Shown here one piece after another: positions 35,032 through 59,658 of a stretch of DNA of 64,000 bases. The stretch spans positions 1-64,000 of the forward strand of contig JAEOSU010000018.1 of assembly GCA_016840165.1 (NCBI GenBank), in the 5' to 3' direction. Source of the stretch: Promethearchaeota archaeon. GTDB lineage: Archaea > Asgardarchaeota > Lokiarchaeia > Sigyniarchaeales > SOKP01. Under the pieces are notes generated by a model. That model had not been told where the DNA came from and ran no database searches. It saw only the letters and a list, made by a program, of their open reading frames with translations. The position numbers and the translations under genes are program-made. Positions within the stretch are counted from its first letter, which is position 1. Every line of letters begins with the position of its first letter.

Positions 35032-36444
35032 TTAGATATAAGTTTTAATTAACTCTCTTAAATTTTTTGTGAGATTTGGTAGTGACTTTTCAATTTTTTC
35101 TACTCTTAATGCTTTTTCCATGAATAATAATAAATATAGATTATAATTATCTACATTTATTTTTTGAAATACAATTTTTTTAGATTGTTCCGAAATACCG
35201 GAAGTAACAATAAAATCTTTCTTTAATATCTTAAACTCTTTAAATGTCTTATATAAAGTCGTAAAGTGTGGTGCTGAGATTTCAAAAACCTTGTTAGCAA
35301 TATCAGATTTTGAATAATTCGATAAGATGATACCATTTTCATTTAAGAGAAGAATCGCATCAGAATTAACCTTGTCAGAAAACAAACGTAATTGGTTCCG
35401 GAATAATTCACGATTAGGGCTTAGTCGTGAAAGTCCAAATGAATAAGCGGAAATAAGGCTCCAATGATCAAAAATCGATGTTTGAAAGATTTTTATGAAA
35501 AAGGTATGAGAACTTTTGCCTATCTCATTGGTTATATATTCAATATTTTTTTTGATCTCTCTTGATTTCTTTAGATCTGGATCAAACTTATTGATACATA
35601 CTACTATAGGCGGAAACTCATCTAAATTTTTAAGGGAATTGAGAATGTTCTGAAATAATGAAACCGATTCTTTAATTCTTTCAGTATCTTGGACGTCAAT
35701 AAAATAAAACAATAAATCCACATTATACAAATAGACTTTTCCTTGTTCAAGAAACTTTTCTCGATATTTTTTTTGCCCCCCTAAATCCCATATAGATATT
35801 TGGGAGTTTTGTTCCTCAAATAATTTCTCCTCTGTTCTTGAAACTCCCTTTGTGGGTAAAGTTTTTATAATTTCAGAGTATCTCTTCTTTACCGCAAGTA
35901 AGAAACTTGTCTTTCCAGCTCTATCCAAGCCTGTAAATAAAATTTTTAATTGTCTTTTTATCGAAAAAGGATCTTTCAGTTCATTGGTAAACTCAAGTAA
36001 ATCTTTTTTAAGTTGATTCATAATAGCTTTATTCTCCTCTAATGTATTTCGAGCTAATATTTTTGTAGCAGTATTATCGATGATGACCCGCAAATATTTC
36101 ATGTTTTCATAAAAAAATATTTTATTTGTCTCTTCAATTAAAATGGTGATAGTTGCTGCTTTTGCGTTTCCTCTAGCTGCTTTATCAGGGATAAGAAAAA
36201 AATATGTTAATCCATTTAATTTTAAATCGGGAAAAGGTAAGATTCCGAAATAATTAATTCCTTCTATAGTTGTACCGTTTTGATAAACAGAATCGCCCAT
36301 AAGTAGACTTATAGTTTTCATAGCGACTAATAATCGCGCTGACTCATCTAAGTCTTCTGGCCAATAGATTATAGGAGTAGGTCCGTCATCATCAAAAAGG
36401 CTATATACAATTGACTTAATTATCTCTCTTTTCATTTCCGTCAT
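35032..36444 (-). CDS. uDENN/longin-like + Arf/Rag-like GTPase + roadblock-like fusion protein
   Basis: FDDDGP, DKAARG. G1 GLDRAGKTS, G2 LPTKG, G3 WDLGGQ, G4 NKFD, G5 TSIFD. C-terminal AILLLNENGIILS. Confidence 0.85.
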   Translation of the reverse strand: MTEMKREIIKSIVYSLFDDDGPTPIIYWPEDLDESARLLVAMKTISLLMGDSVYQNGTTIEGINYFGILPFPDLKLNGLTYFFLIPDKAARGNAKAATITILIEETNKIFFYENMKYLRVIIDNTATKILARNTLEENKAIMNQLKKDLLEFTNELKDPFSIKRQLKILFTGLDRAGKTSFLLAVKKRYSEIIKTLPTKGVSRTEEKLFEEQNSQISIWDLGGQKKYREKFLEQGKVYLYNVDLLFYFIDVQDTERIKESVSLFQNILNSLKNLDEFPPIVVCINKFDPDLKKSREIKKNIEYITNEIGKSSHTFFIKIFQTSIFDHWSLISAYSFGLSRLSPNRELFRNQLRLFSDKVNSDAILLLNENGIILSNYSKSDIANKVFEISAPHFTTLYKTFKEFKILKKDFIVTSGISEQSKKIVFQKINVDNYNLYLLLFMEKALRVEKIEKSLPNLTKNLRELIKTYI

Positions 36445-40331: not shown

Positions 40332-41285
40332 CTATTTATCTAATCCTAAGTATTCTTTCACTTGTTTTTTAACAATATTTGCAGCAAAATTAATAATTCC
40401 TGATTTAATCCGAGGCGATGAGAATATTACCAATATCATGTCATTGCCCAATGTGGTTTCAGTATCAATAGGAGCAAGATCTACAACTCCGTTAGATCCA
40501 CGTACGGAAATATTAAGTAACTTTCCCGCACTTAAACCCTCAATTATATCTTCTCCTATCATCGAAAGATTTTGTCCAATCGTTGCAAATAAATTGTCTG
40601 ACATTCGTGAGGAGATAGCGGAGGCAAGAATCGTTCCATCCTTCTTAATGATGGCTGAAGCTTCAATATGTAAATCTAATTTTAATAATTCTTTAAGAAT
40701 TTCATTCATACTTGAAGGGGGAATAAACTCTTCTTTTTTCTTTTTCTCATATGGTTCTTTTTCTGTTGGGAGTTTTTTTACTGTTATCTTTTTTGATAAG
40801 AAGGTCAATACTTTAGTCATATCCTCCTCTAACTGTTTTTGCTTTACCAAAGATGCTTCGGAATAGGGTGCTTTAGGTACGGGTTGTGGCTTCTCCGTTG
40901 AAGATTTGGAACTATATACTCCTTTTAACCCAATAATTGATCCCTCAAACGGTTTGGGAGTAATCTCCGTAAGGATCTCCTTTTCATCTTCAATATCATC
41001 ATTTTCCTCCTTATGCACTACTAGCTTTTTGGCGTCATCCTTTGAATTATTAACATGGATTTCAACTAATGGTATTTCTTGAAGTTCAGATACTTTGGGC
41101 TTCTTCACGACTTTTGGCTTATTAATAGGTATTTTTTCCCTTGATTTACTCTCTTTTTTCTTTTTTTCTAAAGTAAGTCTTATTCGCGGTGGTTTTGTAG
41201 AAATTGGGAGCAATGCGCCACACTTACGGCATATGTTTCCATCTGCTTCGTTATTGGTCGCACCACAATTACTACATATTATCAT
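40332..41285 (-). CDS. zinc ribbon + disordered linker + roadblock/LC7 domain protein
   Basis: CSNCG...CRKCG. IEASAIIKKDGTILAS...ISVRGSNG roadblock pattern. Confidence 0.82.
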   Translation of the reverse strand: MIICSNCGATNNEADGNICRKCGALLPISTKPPRIRLTLEKKKKESKSREKIPINKPKVVKKPKVSELQEIPLVEIHVNNSKDDAKKLVVHKEENDDIEDEKEILTEITPKPFEGSIIGLKGVYSSKSSTEKPQPVPKAPYSEASLVKQKQLEEDMTKVLTFLSKKITVKKLPTEKEPYEKKKKEEFIPPSSMNEILKELLKLDLHIEASAIIKKDGTILASAISSRMSDNLFATIGQNLSMIGEDIIEGLSAGKLLNISVRGSNGVVDLAPIDTETTLGNDMILVIFSSPRIKSGIINFAANIVKKQVKEYLGLDK

Positions 41286-41328
41286 AAGTGAAGCCCTTAA
41301 TAATAGCTAATTTGAGTAAAAATCGAAA

Positions 41329-41341
41329 ATATAGTCTATAT
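41329..41341. promoter_or_regulatory. palindrome ATATAG-T-CTATAT, putative operator
   Basis: Exact reverse complement of the core at 1147-1159, about 45 bp upstream of the roadblock gene. Confidence 0.3.
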
Positions 41342-41565
41342 CTACTTTATACTAGTGATAATACTGTTTTATTAATATTGTTTCTTTATTATAAAAATCA
41401 ATTTAAAGTTCTAAATTATATCTTTTTCTCTGATATCTTTTCAATAGGAGTTAGTTCTGATTAGAAGATTGAATAAATTCCGAAATAAGAACCTCTAATT
41501 ATATAAAATTTACTTTTTAACAGAAGGAATTAAGTAAAAGAGAAATAAAAACATGTTGCTTTCAA

Positions 41566-42546
41566 TTATTTAAACAAAATTTCGGTCATTATATTAGCGA
41601 ATGAATCAAAGTCCTCTTTATTAATTGCCGGATCCCCTTTTAACATAAGTATATAATATGGTGTTTTGACATCTCGGATATTTAATTTCTTAAATATAAA
41701 GTTTCTCCCAAATCTTTGTACAATCATCTTACCTTCTTCTTCAATTCTTCCCGGTATGACTTGTGTAAATTGGAAACTGTCATTTAAGGTTAGAAAGTAG
41801 GGAGTGGATGCAGATAAAAGATTTTTAGTTTCCTCATCCTTGTAAAAATATCCAATGATGAGAGAGTTATCATCAATAACCACCACTCCCTCAGAATCTA
41901 CTTTTTTGGCAAATTCATCTATAGTTTTACTAATTAATTCCGCTTTGGGATATAAATTTAATAAAATTTCTGACATTGCGCTAATTATAGAATTTAGATC
42001 ATAAATCGATGTATTATAGTAATAAATGCGCTTATAATCTACAGAACGTCTCAGTTTTTCTTTAAGATCTATTTCTAAACTTTTAAATTCGTTCATTGCA
42101 TTTCGTCTTAATGCTGGGTCATATTTGTGGAAAAAGACATATATAGGAGGTTCAATTTCAAGTTTTCTAAATTGTTCAACCACATCTTTGAAGTAACTCA
42201 TAGCTTCTGGAATTCGTGGTTTGTTTTGAATGTCAATCACATAGATTGCGATCTCTGTTCCATCGAAATACTTCCCTGGGTTCTTAAGATAACTAATTCT
42301 ATAACTGATTTGTCCTCCCAAATCCCATTCGGCTATTTCCCTGCCTAAAAACTCAAAAATACGTCTTTGGGCTCCTCTAGTAGGTTTTAAAAGAGCTATT
42401 TTAGAGAATTCTCTTTGAAGGGCTAAAATTATTGAAGTCTTCCCTGCAGCATCTAAACCTGTAAACAATATTTTCGATTGAGGCTCAGGTGGCTCTTTTT
42501 TTTCTTTTGAAAGGTATTGAATTTCCAAAATAAATTCACCTTGCAA
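41566..42546 (-). CDS. Rag/Arf-like small GTPase with C-terminal roadblock-like domain
   Basis: GLDAAGKTS, KPTRG, WDLGGQ, Rag-type HKYD and TSIYD. True start may be TTG 42528 after GGTGA. Confidence 0.85.
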   Translation of the reverse strand: MQGEFILEIQYLSKEKKEPPEPQSKILFTGLDAAGKTSIILALQREFSKIALLKPTRGAQRRIFEFLGREIAEWDLGGQISYRISYLKNPGKYFDGTEIAIYVIDIQNKPRIPEAMSYFKDVVEQFRKLEIEPPIYVFFHKYDPALRRNAMNEFKSLEIDLKEKLRRSVDYKRIYYYNTSIYDLNSIISAMSEILLNLYPKAELISKTIDEFAKKVDSEGVVVIDDNSLIIGYFYKDEETKNLLSASTPYFLTLNDSFQFTQVIPGRIEEEGKMIVQRFGRNFIFKKLNIRDVKTPYYILMLKGDPAINKEDFDSFANIMTEILFK

Positions 42547-45165: not shown

Positions 45166-46671
45166 ATGGAAGAGTTAATTAAATCTTCAATTATTAAATC
45201 AATAGTATTTTCGATTTATGGAGAGTTAGGACCTCAAGCACTATATATATGGCCTGAAATCATAAAGAAGGATACTAATAGTTCCAATTCTTCATTTAAT
45301 ATTGAGGAAAATATTGTATATCTAACCAATAGAGATGCAACTCAAATCGCTATTAAAAATTTGAGTTTATTAATTGGAGATGGTAGCATTTTAGAAAAAT
45401 CTAATTTAGATGAATATCGATATTTTGGGATTATTCCCTTTCCTGATTATAACTTAACCTCATTAACATTTTTTCATTTTACGAATGTTAATTATTCAGA
45501 AAAACCCTTACCATCAGCATGTTCGATTTTAATCGATGAATCGAAACGAAGTTTTTTGTATAATAATATCGAGAGATTTAAAGAATTGATTGTAGATTTT
45601 TGTACAACATTAGATAAAGAAAATGCAAAGGAACTTAAGTCTCAAAAAGAGCTCGAATCTTTATTCAAAAACCTTATCAATGAAATTATTTTAATAGAAA
45701 AGGAACCTACAACGCCTATCTCCGCTCATCGAAAACTTAAAATCATTATGGCAGGTCTTGATGATTCTGGAAAAACTTCCTTTTTACTTTCAGTAGATAG
45801 AAAGTATTCTAAATTAATAGGACTTAAACCTACCAGAGGAGCAAAAGTCAATTCGATTGAAGCTTTAGGAGCAACCATCTTTATATGGGATTTAGGCGGT
45901 CAGTTGGGTTTACGTAAAAAATATCTAAATAAAGCTCAATTATATCTCTATGAGGCGGATCTCTTGTTTTATTTTATTGATATTCGAAATAAAGCTAGAT
46001 TTAAAGAAAGTATTGAGTATCTAACCAAGATTAAGAACGTTCTAGATGGTTTTGAACAATCCACACCAATTATTTTTATTTTTTCAAAAGGCGATCCTGA
46101 TATAATTGATTCTAAAGAGATCAAAAATAATATCAAACTAATTACTACGGAATTAGAAAAATTAACTCCCAATGGTAAACCAGAGATCTACAATACAACG
46201 ATATTTCAATTATTTTCCATATTGAGAGCTTTTTCATCGGGAATAGCAAAACTAAGCCCCAACCGAGATTTAATAGAGTTAAATTTAAGTAGATTTTCCG
46301 AACAAACCCAAACATTTTTAACTTTACTTTTAAGTATGGATGGTCTTGTGCTAGCAGATCATTACACCACCGAAGCATTGAAACTAACTAAAGTGCCGAA
46401 ATCTGAAGAAATCCTTAATATATTTGAAATAACAGCCCCTCAATTTGCAATGTTATTCAAAATTTTTTCAAAATATAGGGCTGTTAAAAAAGATGAGGCA
46501 ATATTCAAGGTCGCAAAATCAGTCATCTTTTTTAAAAGAATTAGGATTTCCGAAACTGATATGTTCCTTTTATTTTTATTAGACGATGAAAAGAAAAAAG
46601 ATCAAATTAATGAGAATTTATCTAGCTTTCTAAATCAAACTCAAGATCTTCTTCTTCGCTATATTTCCTAA
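45166..46671 (+). CDS. uDENN/longin-like + Arf/Rag-like GTPase + roadblock-like fusion protein (paralog of 35032..36444)
   Basis: IIKSIVFS..ELGP, YFGIIPFPD. GLDDSGKTS, KPTRG, WDLGGQ, SKGD. Shares LSPNR and FEI.AP.F..L.K.F with the paralog. Confidence 0.85.
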   Translation: MEELIKSSIIKSIVFSIYGELGPQALYIWPEIIKKDTNSSNSSFNIEENIVYLTNRDATQIAIKNLSLLIGDGSILEKSNLDEYRYFGIIPFPDYNLTSLTFFHFTNVNYSEKPLPSACSILIDESKRSFLYNNIERFKELIVDFCTTLDKENAKELKSQKELESLFKNLINEIILIEKEPTTPISAHRKLKIIMAGLDDSGKTSFLLSVDRKYSKLIGLKPTRGAKVNSIEALGATIFIWDLGGQLGLRKKYLNKAQLYLYEADLLFYFIDIRNKARFKESIEYLTKIKNVLDGFEQSTPIIFIFSKGDPDIIDSKEIKNNIKLITTELEKLTPNGKPEIYNTTIFQLFSILRAFSSGIAKLSPNRDLIELNLSRFSEQTQTFLTLLLSMDGLVLADHYTTEALKLTKVPKSEEILNIFEITAPQFAMLFKIFSKYRAVKKDEAIFKVAKSVIFFKRIRISETDMFLLFLLDDEKKKDQINENLSSFLNQTQDLLLRYIS

Positions 46672-52339: not shown

Positions 52340-55252
52340 ATGGAGCCAAGAAAATACGAATATATCCGATTTTTTGAAGAAGTTCGAAGAGAAGATGTTC
52401 CAATTGTCGGAGGGAAAAATGCTTCTCTCGGAGAATTGCTCTCTTTTGGAATTCCTGTACCTTTGGGTTTTGCAGTTACAGCAAAGGCTTTTGATTATGT
52501 ATTAGATACTAACTTCTTTACAATTAAAGAAGAAGAGGTCTCTCTGCGAGAACTCATATCTCGTGATATAAAGCGTATTTCAAATCAGCTAATGGAAGAA
52601 GATATAAAAGCGATTGAAGAGGTTGACAAGTTATGCGCAAATATACGATATATTATAGAAAAAGCTAAAATTCCCGATAGTTTGAGAGATGAAATTTTAG
52701 AAGCATATCATAAATTAATCGATCACATTGGGGAAGAAACCACTTTTGCCATACGGAGCTCAGCAACCGCGGAAGATTTACCTGACGCTTCATTTGCAGG
52801 CCAGCAAGATACACATTTAAACATCTCTGGAGAGAAAGATGTTTTAGATTATATTTTAAAAGATATGGCATCTGTTTTCACTACCAGAGCAACGATGTAC
52901 AGAGAGAGAGCGGGATTTGATCATTTTGCTGTAAAATTAAGTGTGGGCGTTCAGGAAATGGCTGGAGGAAAAGATGGAGTTAAAGCTTCCGGCGTAATGT
53001 TTTCAGAGGACCCAGACTCAGGTAATCCAAACGTTGTCGTCATTAGAGGAACTTGGGGCCTTGGAGAGTTGATTGTACAAGGAGTTGAAAAAGGTGACGA
53101 GTTCATCGTTTTTAAACACGGACCTCAATTACAAATAATCAGTAAAAGCCTCGTGAAAAAGGAGAAAACAATGATTTTCGATATTGAGAAAGGTGGGACG
53201 ATTACAAAACCCGTAGAAAAAGCTAATCAGAAGAAATTTTGCTTAAATGAACAACAAGTAAAGTTATTAGCTGAATTTGCCACCAAAATACGCGAACATT
53301 ATGGAGTACCAATGGATGTCGAATGGGCATTAGGAAATAATGGTAAAATCTATATAGTACAAGCTCGACCAGAAACAGTTCATTCTCAAAAAGGAGATAC
53401 AGAGGAGATATTTTATCTATTAGAAGATGCAACTAAACTTATATCGGAAAATTATTTAATTGATAATTCTGGCACAGCAATCGGACGAAGAATTGGATAT
53501 GGAAAAGTTAAAGTCATTGAATCGATTAATGAAGCCCATCTTCTTGAAGAAGGCGATATATTAATCACAGAGGAGACGAACCCAGATTGGACGAGTTATA
53601 TGGCAAATCTTGGAGGTGTAGTGACGGAGCGCGGAGGTCCCACTTGCCACGCGGCTATCGTTTCCAGAGAACTTAATATTGCATCAATTGTTGGTGCTGA
53701 TAATATTATAGAGCTTATTAAAGAAAAGATACGAGAATCCAACCTTCAAACAATTACAATTGACTGTAGTGAAGGCGAACCGCGCATCTGGGCAAAAGAG
53801 GTCGAATATGATTATGATACAATCGAATTTTCAAAGCTTCCTAAAACCAAAACGAAAGTTCTAGTGAATTTGGGAATCCCTAAAGGTGCTCTTAGTTCAG
53901 GAAAGCATCCTGATGGAACTGGGTTGGCACGTTTAGAATTCATCATAAATGATGAGATTCAAATCCATCCGAATGCCTTAATCGATTTCGATGCCTTACT
54001 TATGAGATATGATATTTTATTAGAACAAAGAAAAAAAATCGAAAATATAAAAAAAAGTGATCTCCACTATAAAGATCCCTTTAACGAAGAGATTAAACGT
54101 TTAAGGCTCACTATTGACAAAATTAGAGAACTAACAGAAGGTTATGATGATAAAGTCGACTTTTACATACAAAAGTTGGCGGAGGGTATAGCAACTATCG
54201 CAGCAGGCGTATGGAAAAAATTACCAGATGGTGAGATAGCTCCATGTGTCGTTCGATTGTCTGACTTTAAAACAAATGAATATGAAAACCTCATTGGCGG
54301 TTGGTTTTATGAAAGTGATGAAAATAATCCGATGCTCGGCTTCCGAGGGGCCTCACGTTACTGTTCTAACGATTTCCAGAACGCTTTTATCTTAGAGTTA
54401 AAAGCAATTAAAAAGGCTAGGGAATGGGGCTTGATTAATATCATTCCAATGGTTCCATTTTTACGGACTCCAGAAGAGGGCATTCATATTGAGCAGATAA
54501 TGAGATCACAAGATTTAATTCGAGGTCAAAATGGATTAAAGGTCTATTGTATGGCAGAAATTCCCTCAAATATATTCCTAGCGGATATTTTCTGTAAAAC
54601 ATTTGATGGGTTTTCAATAGGGAGCAATGATTTAACTCAATTAATTTACGGAGCTGGAAGAGATAACGAAAAACTGATTACACTTTCACGAAATTACAAT
54701 TATATAACGAATAGTGAAGCAATTAGAAGAGCAGTCTCCCATCTTATTAAAGTCGCCCATGAAAACAATAGAAAGGTCGGAATTTGTGGACAAGCACCGA
54801 GTGATGATCCCGATTTTCTCCGATTTCTAGTGAGGGAAGGAATTGACTCAATTTCTCTTAACTTTGATACTTTTGCTCGAGGAAGGATCAATACGTGGAG
54901 GACTGAAATTATTGAAAACAAGTTAAGTGAAGATAATAAAGAATTAGCATATACTTTTCTAAGCCAATGCGATGATTTAATTGAGAAACTACGAATTCCA
55001 CGTGGTAAATTAAGGAATCTTGCTCGAAAGAAAAGAAAGAAAATTTCAGAAACATTAGATATTAATGTTTCCAAATTTGATGAGATATTTGAAAATACGA
55101 CAAGGATCTCAAATGAATTTGTGCAGAATATTAACTCTGGCAAATTTAAAAATTTTAATAATCTCTATAATGAATATCACGAACAATTACAGTCATATGA
55201 TAAACTGGTTCCTCAATTGATGAAAAGTATTCGTGAATTTGGTATTTTTTAA
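52340..55252 (+). CDS. ppsA: phosphoenolpyruvate synthase with C-terminal helical extension
   Basis: VGGKNASLGE, RSSATAEDLPDASFAGQQ, phospho-His TCHAAIVSREL, NPMLGFRG, SIGSNDLTQ, GICGQ. Confidence 0.95.
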   Translation: MEPRKYEYIRFFEEVRREDVPIVGGKNASLGELLSFGIPVPLGFAVTAKAFDYVLDTNFFTIKEEEVSLRELISRDIKRISNQLMEEDIKAIEEVDKLCANIRYIIEKAKIPDSLRDEILEAYHKLIDHIGEETTFAIRSSATAEDLPDASFAGQQDTHLNISGEKDVLDYILKDMASVFTTRATMYRERAGFDHFAVKLSVGVQEMAGGKDGVKASGVMFSEDPDSGNPNVVVIRGTWGLGELIVQGVEKGDEFIVFKHGPQLQIISKSLVKKEKTMIFDIEKGGTITKPVEKANQKKFCLNEQQVKLLAEFATKIREHYGVPMDVEWALGNNGKIYIVQARPETVHSQKGDTEEIFYLLEDATKLISENYLIDNSGTAIGRRIGYGKVKVIESINEAHLLEEGDILITEETNPDWTSYMANLGGVVTERGGPTCHAAIVSRELNIASIVGADNIIELIKEKIRESNLQTITIDCSEGEPRIWAKEVEYDYDTIEFSKLPKTKTKVLVNLGIPKGALSSGKHPDGTGLARLEFIINDEIQIHPNALIDFDALLMRYDILLEQRKKIENIKKSDLHYKDPFNEEIKRLRLTIDKIRELTEGYDDKVDFYIQKLAEGIATIAAGVWKKLPDGEIAPCVVRLSDFKTNEYENLIGGWFYESDENNPMLGFRGASRYCSNDFQNAFILELKAIKKAREWGLINIIPMVPFLRTPEEGIHIEQIMRSQDLIRGQNGLKVYCMAEIPSNIFLADIFCKTFDGFSIGSNDLTQLIYGAGRDNEKLITLSRNYNYITNSEAIRRAVSHLIKVAHENNRKVGICGQAPSDDPDFLRFLVREGIDSISLNFDTFARGRINTWRTEIIENKLSEDNKELAYTFLSQCDDLIEKLRIPRGKLRNLARKKRKKISETLDINVSKFDEIFENTTRISNEFVQNINSGKFKNFNNLYNEYHEQLQSYDKLVPQLMKSIREFGIF

Positions 55253-55386
55253 GGAATTTCTCATAAATTAGCTAAAACGAAAAGCTACTAAGTATAGAAA
55301 AACAATAAAATTATATTTTATTCACTATTCATTAAATCATTCCTACTTACTATATTTCTGTAAATTTGTTATTTGGTGAATTTATC

Positions 55387-55668
55387 ATGAGCCATGAAAA
55401 AGAATTTACTGCCCTGGTTTTAGACACATTTGGAAAGGTTGAACAATTACTTAATGGAATGATCAATGATCGTTCAGTCCCTCGCAACATAAAACGAATT
55501 GCTCAGAGAGGGATTGATGAACTCAAAAAAAAGGATGATTCTCCTGCTGTTCATGCGAGTAATGTAATGTATATGGTTGATGATTTATCTCTTGATCCAA
55601 ATATTCCATTTCATCAAAGAACAACGATTTATAGAATTTTATCGTTATTAGAAAAAATAAAGGATTAA
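55387..55668 (+). CDS. UPF0147 family protein
   Basis: D.SVPRNI.R.A, DPNIP.H.RT. GGTGA before ATG 55387. Confidence 0.88.
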   Translation: MSHEKEFTALVLDTFGKVEQLLNGMINDRSVPRNIKRIAQRGIDELKKKDDSPAVHASNVMYMVDDLSLDPNIPFHQRTTIYRILSLLEKIKD

Positions 55669-55845
55669 ATTACTCTTTATTTTAAAATTTGTACTAGAAC
55701 TTATTTTAAATAATATGTATTAAATAAGTATTAATAAGATATTCCTTCCTATTTTAAACAAACAAAATTTAAATTAGAAAATGATAATATAATCTACAAA
55801 TATAAAGATTATATGAAATCTACAAACCAGTATATATTCAGCTAA

Positions 55846-56889
55846 ATGATAAACCAAGATATTATTACCGCTGTGTTGTATATCCAATTAGATGATGAAG
55901 TAGGTCCTAATCCCGTTGTAACTCTTCCTAAGGATTTTGCTAATGTAAATAAGATGCATGTCAGTATTAAAGTGATTACGGTACTTTCGGGAGAACATGG
56001 TAATGTTCCAAAAAAATTGGTCATTCTACCGTTTCCTTCTCTAAAATTAAAAGGAATTATTAAATATATTAAGTGGGACGATCCTAAACGAAGAGGAGGC
56101 ATTGGTCAGGCAGCAATAGCCATTTTATTTGAGGATATAAACGATGTTATCTTTTACAAATATTTTGAACAATTGAGCGACTCTTTCGAGGAAATAGGAA
56201 AAATCTTTAGAAATTTGGAAGAAAATAGATCTAAATTGGAAGAAATCGAAAAAGAAGTTAAGAATTTAATTAATAGAATCAAAACAGTACTTAATGAGCT
56301 ACGGATTGATGAAACATCTCAATCTGAATCAAAAGAATTTCCAAAACTTAAACTTAAAGATTCAACAATGATAGATTATAAATTCAAAATCATTGTGTTA
56401 GGAGATCCGGGAGTGGGAAAAACCTCGCTTATATTAAGATACACTGATAACGCTTTTCGAAGAAGTTATATTCCTACCTTAGGGGTGCACGTTAGTGATA
56501 AGATCTTTAAAATAGATGATGCCGTTGTTCAACTTGTAATCTGGGATTTAGCAGGACAACAAAAATTCGATACAATGCGTCATCAATTCTATGTTGGTTC
56601 TGATGGTTTTATTTTGGTATTTGATTTGACTAATCTCAATTCTTTTGAGAATTTATCTAACTGGTTTCTAGATATACAAAATCAATTCAAGGATCAAACT
56701 AACTTAATGGGTTATGTTATCGGAAATAAATGTGATTTAAGAGAGCAAGTTAAAATTAAATCGGAAAATGCAAAAGAATTAGCCTCTTATCTAAACCTTA
56801 ACTTTATTGAAACATCAGCTTTATCTGGTTTAAATGTTAATAAAGTTTTTACACAATTAGCAAAATCTTTATATACTTCATTTACTTAA
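55846..56889 (+). CDS. uDENN/longin-like + Rab-like GTPase fusion, paralog 1
   Basis: LDDEVGP, DPKRRG. GDPGVGKTS, YIPTLG, WDLAGQ, GNKCD, ETSAL. Confidence 0.88.
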   Translation: MINQDIITAVLYIQLDDEVGPNPVVTLPKDFANVNKMHVSIKVITVLSGEHGNVPKKLVILPFPSLKLKGIIKYIKWDDPKRRGGIGQAAIAILFEDINDVIFYKYFEQLSDSFEEIGKIFRNLEENRSKLEEIEKEVKNLINRIKTVLNELRIDETSQSESKEFPKLKLKDSTMIDYKFKIIVLGDPGVGKTSLILRYTDNAFRRSYIPTLGVHVSDKIFKIDDAVVQLVIWDLAGQQKFDTMRHQFYVGSDGFILVFDLTNLNSFENLSNWFLDIQNQFKDQTNLMGYVIGNKCDLREQVKIKSENAKELASYLNLNFIETSALSGLNVNKVFTQLAKSLYTSFT

Positions 56890-56954
56890 AATTCCTTGAT
56901 TCTATGATTATACTAATCGTTAGAAATAAAAAATTTTTGAGAATATAAAAAATT

Positions 56955-57044
56955 ATGAAAAAAAAAGTAAAATATCTATTAATATTCTTATTAATAATTA
57001 GTAGTTCAATCACGGGAGTAATATTATACGTATTAAATTTCTGA
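56955..57044 (+). CDS. candidate 29-aa membrane micropeptide or gene remnant
   Basis: Hand-translated MKKKVKYLLIFLLIISSSITGVILYVLNF*, below the ORF-track size cutoff. Confidence 0.35.
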   Translation: MKKKVKYLLIFLLIISSSITGVILYVLNF

Positions 57045-57183
57045 AAAATCTACATCAAGTGAAGAGATTTATTTTCTAAAGTTGATGTCTAATTGATCCA
57101 AATAACAGATATTTATATCATCTTATAAATTTTATATAGAATTTTAGCAATAACCAAATAATAAATATTGTTAATTTTTCAAT

Positions 57184-57209
57184 TATATAAGACTAAAAAC
57201 TTTTTAGTC
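57184..57209 (+). promoter_or_regulatory. TATA-like box followed by the perfect palindrome GACTAAAAA-C-TTTTTAGTC
   Basis: TATATAA at 57184-57190, 9-bp arms at 57191-57199 and 57201-57209, about 30 bp before the 57238 start. Confidence 0.5.
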
Positions 57210-57237
57210 GATAATTTATTAGCGTTGAGGATTAAGA

Positions 57238-58290
57238 TTGGATAGAGCGATCATTCATTCCATAGTATACACTGAATTTAATGATGAATTAGGTCCAAAT
57301 CCACTTTTTTGTCTTCCACAAGATTTGTCAGAGAACATTTCAATGCTTGTAAGCATTAAAACGGTTACGATCCTCTCAGCTGATCATGGTTTTATACCAG
57401 ATTCGCTTATAATTATTCCTTTTCCCTCGTTGAAATTAAAAGGTTTAATTAAATATATAGAAAGAGACGACGAATCAAGACGGGGAAAAGTTGCTCAATC
57501 TGCAATCACATTTTTATTTCGAGAAGTTGAAGATATCCTCTTTTATAAATATATGAACTATTTCAATTCTCCTTTTAATGAGACCACCCGTAAAATAGTT
57601 GAATTAGAAAATCAAAATCAGGATAAATCGCTGATATTTAGAGAAATTGAGAATTTAAAAGATAGTATTCACGCATTATTAAAAGATTTTAGGATTAAAG
57701 AATTTCAGCAATTCTCTTATAAAGAATTTCCTGAAATAAAAAAATTAACTGAAAAAGAAGTTGATTTAAAGGCGAAAATAGTAATTATTGGAGATCCAGG
57801 AGTCGGAAAAACAAGTACTATTTTACGTTTTACTGATAATGCATTTAAAAGAAGCTATATCCCCACTATGGGCACAAACATAACTGAAAAGAGTTTTAGA
57901 GTTAAGGATAATATAATAGAGTTGATTCTATGGGATTTAGCAGGACAAAGTAAGTTCGAACTTATGCGAAAACATTTTTATCAAGGCGCTGAAGCTGTTA
58001 TACTTATTTTTGATTTAACAAATCCTAAATCCTTTCAAAGTGTAATTCAGTGGTTTGAAGATATCGAGAATAACTTAATACTTGAGCATGAGCTTATTGG
58101 ATGTCTCTTTGGAAACAAAACTGATTTAACTAATGGACGTAAAATTGGTACTAATGAAGCACAAAAATTAGCCTCCCAGTTAAATCTAGATTACTTTGAA
58201 ACTTCGGCTCTAACAGGAAAAAATGTAGAAAATGCATTTTATAAGATCGCAGAGAAAATTATTGAAGTAAGAAAGCCAGATTTAGCATAA
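57238..58290 (+). CDS. uDENN/longin-like + Rab-like GTPase fusion, paralog 2
   Basis: EFNDELGP, DESRRG. GDPGVGKTS, YIPTMG, WDLAGQ, GNKTD, ETSAL. Confidence 0.88.
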   Translation: MDRAIIHSIVYTEFNDELGPNPLFCLPQDLSENISMLVSIKTVTILSADHGFIPDSLIIIPFPSLKLKGLIKYIERDDESRRGKVAQSAITFLFREVEDILFYKYMNYFNSPFNETTRKIVELENQNQDKSLIFREIENLKDSIHALLKDFRIKEFQQFSYKEFPEIKKLTEKEVDLKAKIVIIGDPGVGKTSTILRFTDNAFKRSYIPTMGTNITEKSFRVKDNIIELILWDLAGQSKFELMRKHFYQGAEAVILIFDLTNPKSFQSVIQWFEDIENNLILEHELIGCLFGNKTDLTNGRKIGTNEAQKLASQLNLDYFETSALTGKNVENAFYKIAEKIIEVRKPDLA

Positions 58291-58440
58291 ATTAATTCTT
58301 CCAACTAAGATTTATAATTAAGTTATAAAAATCTAAATTTTATAGTCTTATTCAAAATAGTTTAATTGGATAGTAATAAAAATAAACATTGCTAAATATT
58401 ATTTAAATTAGATTTTTATATTCTTGGGTGGAATCTAAGC

Positions 58441-59658
58441 ATGGTAAATTTTACCTTTGATGATTGGATCATAGGTGTTTCTACATTAGTAATTTTATTA
58501 TTTGGTTATGGATTAGGGTCCTACTTTTTTTACAAGTCAATAAAGATGAAGACTATGCTCCTTAGCATGCTAAGTTTGTCGATGATAAGTGTGAGTTTTG
58601 CATGGCTACCCATTGTTTTAGATTTCTTTTTAGTGCTTTTTACTAATACAAGTGGAGAACTTTTAGTTTATATATATTTAACTTGGGGTCAACTCCCTTT
58701 TAGCGTTTTTTTAAGTCAATATGTGGCTGCGGAACTCCTTTTACCATCAAAAAAGATATATATCATTTATTTCTTAGAAATAATCGGAATACTTTTCTTA
58801 GTATTTCTATTTTTAGATCCGGTCAATTCTGTTATCCCTGTAGGATATCCTGCGGAAAACTTTTATTATAAGATTAGTATTAAAAATAATTCATTTCTAG
58901 GGATTTTTGGTCTTATATTAATCCTTTTTGTCTTTATCTTTTCTGGTATAGGTTATATTTATAAATCTTCCATTTCTAAGCCTCAAATTAAAAATAATTT
59001 TAGATTTTTAGGAATAGGAATGATATTTATTTATTTATTTGGTTTTCTAGACAGTATTCTTAATGGGATCTTTCTTGTTTTAGTAAGAATAGGGGCGATT
59101 GTCGGGCTCTTTTTATCCTACTGGGGGCTTAAACCAAGAATTCAAAAAAAACATCATGATTATGATAATCGTGTGAAGGTGATTACTTATTTTCTCCATA
59201 AGCCAAAATCCGCGGATATTTCAGGAGAGATCGAATATTATCGTGATTTATTAAAACGGCCAATAGTTTTATTCATAAGTTTTTATCTTGGAGATTTAAA
59301 AATATTTAAGATAAGAGAGGTTATCCAAAAATTAAAAGTTTATCCTGAAATCAAAGATATTATTTATCGGACTTATGAAACCAATGAAAACATGTTTGAG
59401 TTTACACAAAATGTTATTGATAAATTTGACATAATGCTAGTATTTTGTTCAAAAGAAGCATTAAGTTCAATAGAGGTCAAAAATCAATGGATAAGTGCTC
59501 TTGAAAACAAGAAATCAATCATCCCTGTGTTTATAAAATCAGATTACGTGCCAGATCTATTGAAGAATAATGAAGGATTATTATATGATTTATATGACTT
59601 TGACAAAACAGTCTTAAATTTACGGCATTTAATATTAAAAGCAATTTTCAGTAAATAA
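58441..59658 (+). CDS. seven-TM membrane protein with C-terminal TIR domain
   Basis: Seven hydrophobic segments in the first ~230 aa, then LFISF...DIMLVFCSKEALSS..VKNQWISA....KSIIPVF TIR pattern. Confidence 0.78.
   Translation: MVNFTFDDWIIGVSTLVILLFGYGLGSYFFYKSIKMKTMLLSMLSLSMISVSFAWLPIVLDFFLVLFTNTSGELLVYIYLTWGQLPFSVFLSQYVAAELLLPSKKIYIIYFLEIIGILFLVFLFLDPVNSVIPVGYPAENFYYKISIKNNSFLGIFGLILILFVFIFSGIGYIYKSSISKPQIKNNFRFLGIGMIFIYLFGFLDSILNGIFLVLVRIGAIVGLFLSYWGLKPRIQKKHHDYDNRVKVITYFLHKPKSADISGEIEYYRDLLKRPIVLFISFYLGDLKIFKIREVIQKLKVYPEIKDIIYRTYETNENMFEFTQNVIDKFDIMLVFCSKEALSSIEVKNQWISALENKKSIIPVFIKSDYVPDLLKNNEGLLYDLYDFDKTVLNLRHLILKAIFSK

Follow-up and report, generated by a model that had tools for sequence, protein, structure and literature searches.

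Two adjacent genes in the archaeal genome assembly GCA_016840165.1 (Promethearchaeota archaeon, contig JAEOSU010000018.1) encode tandem paralogues, here called A and B, in which a helical linker connects an N-terminal longin domain with a C-terminal Rab/Ras-type G domain. They lie at positions 55846 to 58290 of the first 64,000 nucleotides of the contig, the stretch that was analyzed and that is referred to below as the window. Structural models and sequence conservation place the longin domain in the class found in the GTPase-activating proteins (GAPs) FLCN, NPRL2, and SMCR8, and it carries a candidate arginine finger in the loop where SMCR8 has its own. By analogy with these eukaryotic proteins we favor a reading, to which we give a probability of roughly 0.55, in which the longin domain would be a built-in GTPase-activating module for the attached Rab domain, likely within a longin-mediated pairing of A and B. 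The GTPase partner of those Asgard longins that have a glycine-proline (GP) motif together with the arginine was left open in 2025 (PMC12290439, Traffic 2025), and a large, strongly conserved family in which such a longin is physically fused to a Rab-like, or in paralogues a Rag-like, GTPase bears on that question.

Both genes are intact open reading frames (ORFs) on the plus strand. Paralogue A (P0001, 347 residues, 55846..56889) starts with ATG, and paralogue B (P0002, 350 residues, 57238..58290) starts with TTG, six bases downstream of a GAGGA at 57227-57231. The two proteins are 46% identical across 341 residues and share the same three-part layout. The source genome is 3.6 Mb in size, with 4018 ORFs and an estimated completeness of 99.7%; the G+C content of the window is ∼30%. 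The 20 sequencing runs listed for 55300-58500 are all DNA metagenomes, with no RNA among them. In A, the longin domain occupies residues 1-106 (55846..56163), the helical linker residues 107-175 (56164..56370), and the G domain residues 176-347 (56371..56889).

The C-terminal half is the only part of either protein that Pfam covers, with strong matches to Ras (E 3e-51 for A and 7e-49 for B) and weaker ones to Roc and Arf. For the G domain of A, the best 60 solved relatives are all Rab, Ypt, or Sec4 proteins (E 5e-38 to 1e-32), the nearest being RabA1a, Rab8A, Rab1A, and Ypt1 (E about 5e-38), and Foldseek gives a template modeling (TM) score of about 0.9 against Rab8 and Rab1. Motifs G1-G5 are intact: GDPGVGKTS at 186-194, WDLAGQ at 233-238 with the catalytic Gln238, NKCD at 294-297, and ETSAL at 322-326. 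Across 238 full-length homologues hardly any variation is seen in the P-loop, the DxxGQ glutamine, NKxD, and ETSA, and Q238 is found in all 238. On these sequence grounds, the G domains of A and B are apparently active Rab-like GTPases; the original prediction had assigned them to the Rab/Ras type from the same motifs. A by-eye reading of the RabF motifs, made without formal scoring, finds the interswitch and switch II partly like RabF2-F5, and switch I reads P-T-L-G-V-H. No cysteine lies near the C-terminus of A or B, so that the prenylation motif of the Rab family is absent, also as predicted; a cysteine within the last six residues occurs in just four of the 238 homologues. Rab paralogues of the strain MK-D1 have been noted to have no switch I arginine and described as proteins that ‘may require GAPs’ (Tran et al., PMC10933270). 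A search of the 99.7%-complete genome for RabGAP-TBC (PF00566) gave no match, and the control genomes were silent as well, so that this absence is unvalidated.

The fold of the N-domain was modeled with AlphaFold2 from residues 1-128 of A and a 42-row alignment (predicted local distance difference test score (pLDDT) 88, predicted TM score 0.82). The predicted strands (7-16, 20-27, 59-63, 68-78, and 86-96) and helices (33-48, 97-105, and 107-126) follow the longin order, which within residues 1-106 is strand-strand-helix-strand-strand-strand-helix. A model of full-length A (pLDDT 80.5) adds a 32-residue helix at 131-162, a disordered hinge at 160-172, and the Ras-like domain. When the N-domain model was aligned with 48,161 chains by VIA-align, the top match was 8yqg, the dimeric longin domain of a Lokiarchaeota Roadblock-Longin protein (Z 15.5, root-mean-square deviation 2.1, 121 aligned residues). 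Second came a tied block at Z 10.3-10.7 made up of GAP longins only: Lst4 of K. lactis, FLCN (6nzd_H), Npr2 (8adl_S), NPRL2 (8fw5_B), and C9orf72-SMCR8 (7o2w_A). Roadblocks and the longins of DENND1A, Mon1-Ccz1, TRAPP, and VAMP7 followed at Z of 8.9 or lower. Foldseek likewise returned 8yqg (E 1e-4) and chains of GATOR1/SEAC (E 2e-4 to 8e-4) for the N-domain, and a sequence profile match to 8yqg reached E 9e-5. A shape search of the ESM Atlas gave TM scores of 0.91 for the family itself, 0.83 for a Heimdall cluster that matches Pfam Folliculin, 0.75 for SMCR8, 0.74 for FLCN/SMCR8 uDENN, and 0.71 for NPRL2. At the level of the model, then, the N-domain has the longin fold of the FLCN/NPRL2/SMCR8 GAP class.

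Two short motifs within this fold connect it to the GAP mechanism. In FLCN, NPRL2, SMCR8, and C9orf72 a GP motif occupies the loop before strand 2 or the start of that strand; it is absent from non-GAP longins and adjoins the arginine finger, and both motifs have been reported in stand-alone Asgard longins (PMC12290439). The finger of SMCR8, Arg147 (the equivalent of Arg164 in FLCN), was placed in the loop between longin strands 4 and 5 (Tang et al.) and points at the BeF3 in ARF1 (Su et al.). Arg147-dependent GAP activity of C9orf72-SMCR8 has also been demonstrated in vitro on Rab8a and Rab11a (Tang et al.). The nearest solved G domains to that of A are Rab8, Rab1, and Rab11-like, which may be compared with these two targets.

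Paralogue A carries the motif blocks D17-E-V-G20-P21, P62-FPSLKLKG70, and D79-P-K-R82-R83-G84. In its model, G20-P21 (55903..55908) open the strand 20-27, and R82-R83-G84 (56089..56097) lie between strands 68-78 and 86-96, which gives the candidate finger R83 the same loop position as SMCR8 R147 and FLCN R164, as judged by topology and not by three-dimensional superposition. Paralogue B has the same blocks shifted by one residue. Its G19-P20 (57292..57297) are invariant in 40 orthologues, and of R81-R82-G83 (57478..57486) the candidate finger R82 is conserved in at least 90% of them and G83 in all. Among the 238 full-length homologues, conservation is nearly complete at G20 (238), P21 (237), R83 (236), and G84 (237), while position 82 is occupied by R in 186 of them and by K in 51; the longin domain as a whole is conserved like the G domain (0.69 versus 0.68). 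The motifs quoted for both proteins in the original prediction are thus all present in intact reading frames, and its longin with an arginine is borne out by the model in both fold and loop position. Its analogy with DENN-type exchange factors does not apply, because neither A nor B has a DENN domain.

The GP motif and the arginine are also kept or lost together across the wider family. In 129 family representatives, 100 have both GP and RG, 12 have GP only, four have RG only, and 13 have neither (odds ratio 27, Fisher p 3e-8, uncorrected for relatedness and alignment error). Longin-Rab members from other genomes that lack GP and Arg and have intact G1-G5 motifs are P0264, P0283, P0303, P0307, P0326, P0361, P0374, and P0380. 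It is possible that such members are partner subunits analogous to FNIP, NPRL3, and C9orf72.

Paralogues A and B each have their own set of orthologues, with 1240 and 853 database matches, respectively, at 53-95% identity (57-95% for the B group), and the two sets frequently share contigs. A tree of 64 rows places the upstream genes from four genomes in one clade (clade A) and the downstream genes in the other (clade B), each with support of 94 in the Shimodaira-Hasegawa-like approximate likelihood ratio test (SH-aLRT). A and B are ancient tandem paralogues whose A-then-B order is conserved in other Asgard genomes. Complex prediction was run for A with B, each with its own alignment, together with two GTP and two Mg and with three controls. 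The score of 0.56, against 0.01 for the best control, falls in the weak band of the calibration. There, 58 of 80 solved complexes and two of 110 mismatched pairs attained the mark; seven of the 80, and both of these mismatches, did so at 0.60 or below. Contact agreement between the runs was at least 59% and the partner pLDDT at least 76. Some dimer of these proteins is therefore plausible from the prediction, and the score does not decide which one. The earlier suggestion that the pair may heterodimerize gains weak support in this way, and A-B is not separable in the score from A-A and B-B.

In the mechanism that we favor, a Rab domain would receive the loop arginine (R83 in A, R82 in B) in its nucleotide pocket, in the way that ARF1 receives Arg147 of SMCR8. 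A and B would probably form a pair held by their longin domains and helices, like all of the GAP longins of eukaryotes and the Loki longin of solved structure, and each finger would act either on the G domain of the partner (in trans) or on its own (in cis). The switch would thereby become self-timing in an organism with no recognized RabGAP. Three points underlie this reading of a finger that serves a Rab pocket, most likely within a dimer: all of the eukaryotic GAP longins and 8yqg are dimeric, the long helix and hinge of the linker would let a finger reach its target in cis or in trans, and the activity of C9orf72-SMCR8 on Rab8a and Rab11a provides a precedent.

Several observations weigh against this mechanism. 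The Pfam models Folliculin (PF11704) and NPR2 (PF06218) have no match on A, B, or the N-domains of 40 orthologues; in relatives, Folliculin comes near or above its cut-off of 23.3 bits (24.5 bits for P0324, 21.5 for P0383, and a sub-threshold 17-18 for a 470-residue protein of the window described below). Sequence searches of the PDB aligned the N-domain to no chain of FLCN, NPRL2, or SMCR8 and returned only 8yqg and spurious matches to TALE repeats. Family members that have lost GP and Arg retain normal G-domain motifs, which means that the G domain can persist without a finger. Both A and B keep the arginine, unlike the eukaryotic pairs with one Arg-bearing and one Arg-less subunit, and neither has the DENN domain. 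The complex score lies in the weak band, where close cousins of a true partner also pass. Finally, many longin and roadblock platforms are guanine nucleotide exchange factors (GEFs) or scaffolds.

In the strongest alternative, the longin domain would not be a GAP but a platform for dimerization or docking, or else a module that is GEF-like or binds effectors, of the kind seen in Mon1-Ccz1, TRAPP, and DENN proteins, with RG and GP serving folding, the dimer interface, or the binding of another ligand. We consider it possible, though clearly less probable than a GAP role. It fits the observation that GEFs and scaffolds make up most of the longin and roadblock platforms (PMC10933270), the intact G domains of the Arg-less family members, and the nearest solved relative, 8yqg, which is dimeric and has no arginine. 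The longins of Mon1, Ccz1, TRAPP, and DENND1 do align with the N-domain model, at Z 7.3-8.1, but the GAP longins stand 1.5-3 Z units above them. The reported absence of the GP motif from non-GAP longins, the joint retention or loss of GP and Arg, and the position of the arginine in the same loop as the proven SMCR8 finger all favor the GAP role instead.

The N-domain is not confined to Rab-like proteins, and its distribution bears on which GTPase it would serve. A profile built from family representatives was searched against the 4018 ORFs of the genome, and the strong matches are exactly four proteins: the pair itself (4e-48 and 1e-44), a 470-residue protein (35032..36444, minus strand; 1.9e-38), and a 501-residue protein (45166..46671, plus strand; 1.1e-18). 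Both additional proteins are Rag-like longin-GTPase-roadblock fusions with Gtr1_RagA/Arf-type G domains and a roadblock tail. The former has GP and A-R-G, and its G and roadblock parts match LokiRagO (8yl2) at E 2e-37; the latter keeps GP and has S-E-K in place of the arginine motif. Residues 1-170 of A match the N-terminus of the 470-residue protein at E 2e-19 (30% identity over 155 residues, through residue 146 in the linker), and B matches the 501-residue protein at E 1e-5. The N-domains of all four proteins are thus homologous, in agreement with the original prediction, whose refuting condition of unrelated N-domains does not hold, and the same N-module is present on two GTPase families. 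All four of these clear GP/Arg longin family members of the genome lie within 23 kb of one contig (35032-58290).

Beyond this genome, a profile search of 1.84 billion representative proteins found 232 clusters at E up to 1e-3, and homologues carry Lokiarchaeota or Promethearchaeota names. Sorted by length and local comparison, the members fall into four groups: a majority of longin-Rab proteins of about 345 residues, longin-Rag-roadblock proteins of 460-520 residues, proteins of about 287 residues, of the 8yqg type, in which the domain spans 110-235, and a smaller number of fusions that join it to TrmB or to both Rab and TIR. Among 301 sampled genomes of the phylum, the N-domain profile matched in 68 of 68 in the family of the window, in six of seven in the sister family, and in a scatter elsewhere; several large families gave no match at E 1e-8, although sensitivity drops with distance. 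In a tree of N-domains, the Rag-linked domains split from the Rab- and roadblock-linked ones with an SH-aLRT of 98, and six architecture changes are needed against a minimum of three. This grouping by architecture suggests a few ancient fusion events followed by vertical descent, rather than ongoing shuffling. The idea of a portable module shuffled between GTPase families therefore stands insofar as the domain occurs on Rab-type and Arf/Rag-type G domains and with roadblock, TrmB, and TIR, and it fails as a description of a continuing process. In the source genome itself, the next match after the four strong ones is a protein of 1126 residues on another contig (C30, 248176-251556, plus strand), which has a longin domain of this family at residues 326-439 (E 6e-11).

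It is conceivable in this context that the longin is a GAP for another GTPase, such as the Rag/Arf-like proteins encoded ∼10-20 kb away, with the fused Rab domain controlling or localizing it. In eukaryotes, Rag GTPases are the targets of FLCN and NPRL2, and ARF1 is the best substrate of SMCR8 (Su et al.); the four family members are clustered in the genome; and a distance of ∼20 kb between the Rab pair and the Rag-like fusion recurs in many genomes from two genera. Set against this, the Rag-like proteins bear their own copy of the longin module, the N-domains group by their fused G domain in a way that fits co-evolution with the fused partner, and the 20-kb linkage, which may reflect either plain synteny or a functional neighborhood, could among close relatives be synteny alone. 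We regard this alternative as improbable. Similarly doubtful is a reading in which the pair arose by a recent, redundant duplication and its members have no function in common, so that A and B each act alone as a monomer or homodimer. It would fit the additional recent copy of A found in the genome L005, the retention of all motifs in both paralogues, and the inability of the complex test to separate hetero- from homodimers. Against it stand the age of the A and B clades, each present in several genera with gene order fixed, and six positions fixed differently in A and B, among them W77/R, which adjoins the finger loop, and Q247/H, close to switch II.

A more elaborate form of the GAP reading would make A and B an obligate heterodimer, held by the longin domains and the linker helices, in which each arginine is inserted reciprocally into the Rab pocket of the partner to give a self-timing switch, a living model of the ancestor of the eukaryotic longin GAP heterodimers and their separate client GTPases. 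In this reading the pair may also be coupled to the membrane protein with a TIR-like domain encoded downstream of it, given that longin, Rab, and TIR are fused in a protein found elsewhere. This is speculative and, in our judgment, rather unlikely as a whole.

The gene neighborhood of the pair is conserved in part. Upstream on the plus strand lie a PEP synthase/PPDK-like gene (52340..55252, 970 residues) and a UPF0147 gene identified by Pfam (55366..55668), and the order PEP synthase, UPF0147, pair recurs in the genomes L004, L005, and L006 and in a close relative. In some of these assemblies an unannotated gene of 236 residues, absent here, lies between UPF0147 and A. The 348-nt gap between A and B contains a 29-codon ORF (56956-57045, plus strand) that encodes a lysine-rich N-terminus and then a hydrophobic helix; its conservation is improbable, because the gap measures only 59-170 nt in L004 and L005. 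Downstream, 150 nt after B, is a gene for a 405-residue multi-pass membrane protein with a C-terminal TIR-like domain (58441-59658, plus strand; Pfam TIR_2 E 1.5e-5, 25.9 bits, under the cut-off of 28), and a gene for a protein of 405 residues also follows the pair in a close relative. A longin-Rab-TIR fusion exists elsewhere (P0260, 525 residues, TIR_2 E 7e-19), and its TIR part matches the membrane protein weakly (E 2e-4 over 58 residues). Between the two Rag-like fusions, at 40332-42546 on the minus strand, a longin-less Rag-like GTPase with a roadblock tail (326 residues, 41566-42546) adjoins a zinc-ribbon protein that matches Roadblock/LC7 weakly (E 0.018).

To our knowledge, experiments have yet to demonstrate a GAP for any small GTPase of Asgard archaea. 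The fusions themselves are a hint, of the Rosetta-stone type, to which GTPases the Asgard GP/Arg longins serve. With just two proteins, the pair is a compact system in which biochemistry could cleanly establish whether the arginine-finger GAP mechanism of longins is older than the eukaryotes, which makes it a good test object.

Both the fusion of longin domains to GTPases and the GP/Arg motif in Asgard archaea are already published, and the idea itself has precedents. In Lokiarchaeum, fusions of longin domains with Arf-like GTPases were described (Klinger 2016, as summarized in PMC4917890), and longin-Rag fusions along with abundant NPRL2-like longins are known from Asgard archaea (Liu et al., bioRxiv 10.1101/2020.10.19.343400; Liu 2021). 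In MK-D1, L-G (‘LG’) and L-G-R (‘LGR’) architectures were reported, with one ‘LG’ protein in the Rab clade (Tran et al. 2024, PMC10933270). The C-terminal segment of that protein, as printed and possibly garbled, had a best match of 52% identity in the closed genome G213, which may be of another strain; the two N-domain profile matches in G213 are both Rag-type frames. A literature search for 8YQG, LokiRagO, and LokiRagM found no paper. What is new here is how large and how constrained the Rab-fused family is, the A/B paralogy in fixed order, the joint retention or loss of GP and Arg, the tree by architecture, and the use of the fusions themselves to address the question of the GTPase partner.

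Like the published Asgard longin-GTPase fusions, A and B combine an N-terminal longin with a small GTPase in Loki-type archaea. The text of those papers concerns Arf-like or Rag-like fusions, with no discussion of GP/Arg on Rab fusions, of a conserved A/B pair, or of its synteny. The closest solved structure to the N-domain of A, 8yqg, has the GP motif and belongs to the same family as the members of about 287 residues; in contrast to A and B, the crystallized protein is fused to a roadblock domain rather than a GTPase and has no loop arginine. MglA-MglB of Myxococcus offers another prokaryotic parallel, in which a dimer from the roadblock/longin superfamily controls a small GTPase. MglB differs in being a separate roadblock protein without an arginine finger, and its structural score lies in the general roadblock range. 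In contrast to the eukaryotic longin GAP complexes, the longin of A and B shares a polypeptide with a Rab-like GTPase, the C-terminal DENN or NPRL2 domain is absent, the arginine is present in both paralogues, and the host is a prokaryote without a lysosome; Pfam models miss their longin domains, and their GAP function is predicted. Nevertheless, they share with FLCN-FNIP2 (acting on RagC/D), NPRL2-NPRL3 of GATOR1 (RagA/B), and SMCR8-C9orf72 (ARF1, and Rab8a/11a in vitro) the longin fold, the GP motif at strand 2, the arginine in the strand 4-5 loop, an association with a small GTPase, and the presence of two paralogous longin proteins side by side.

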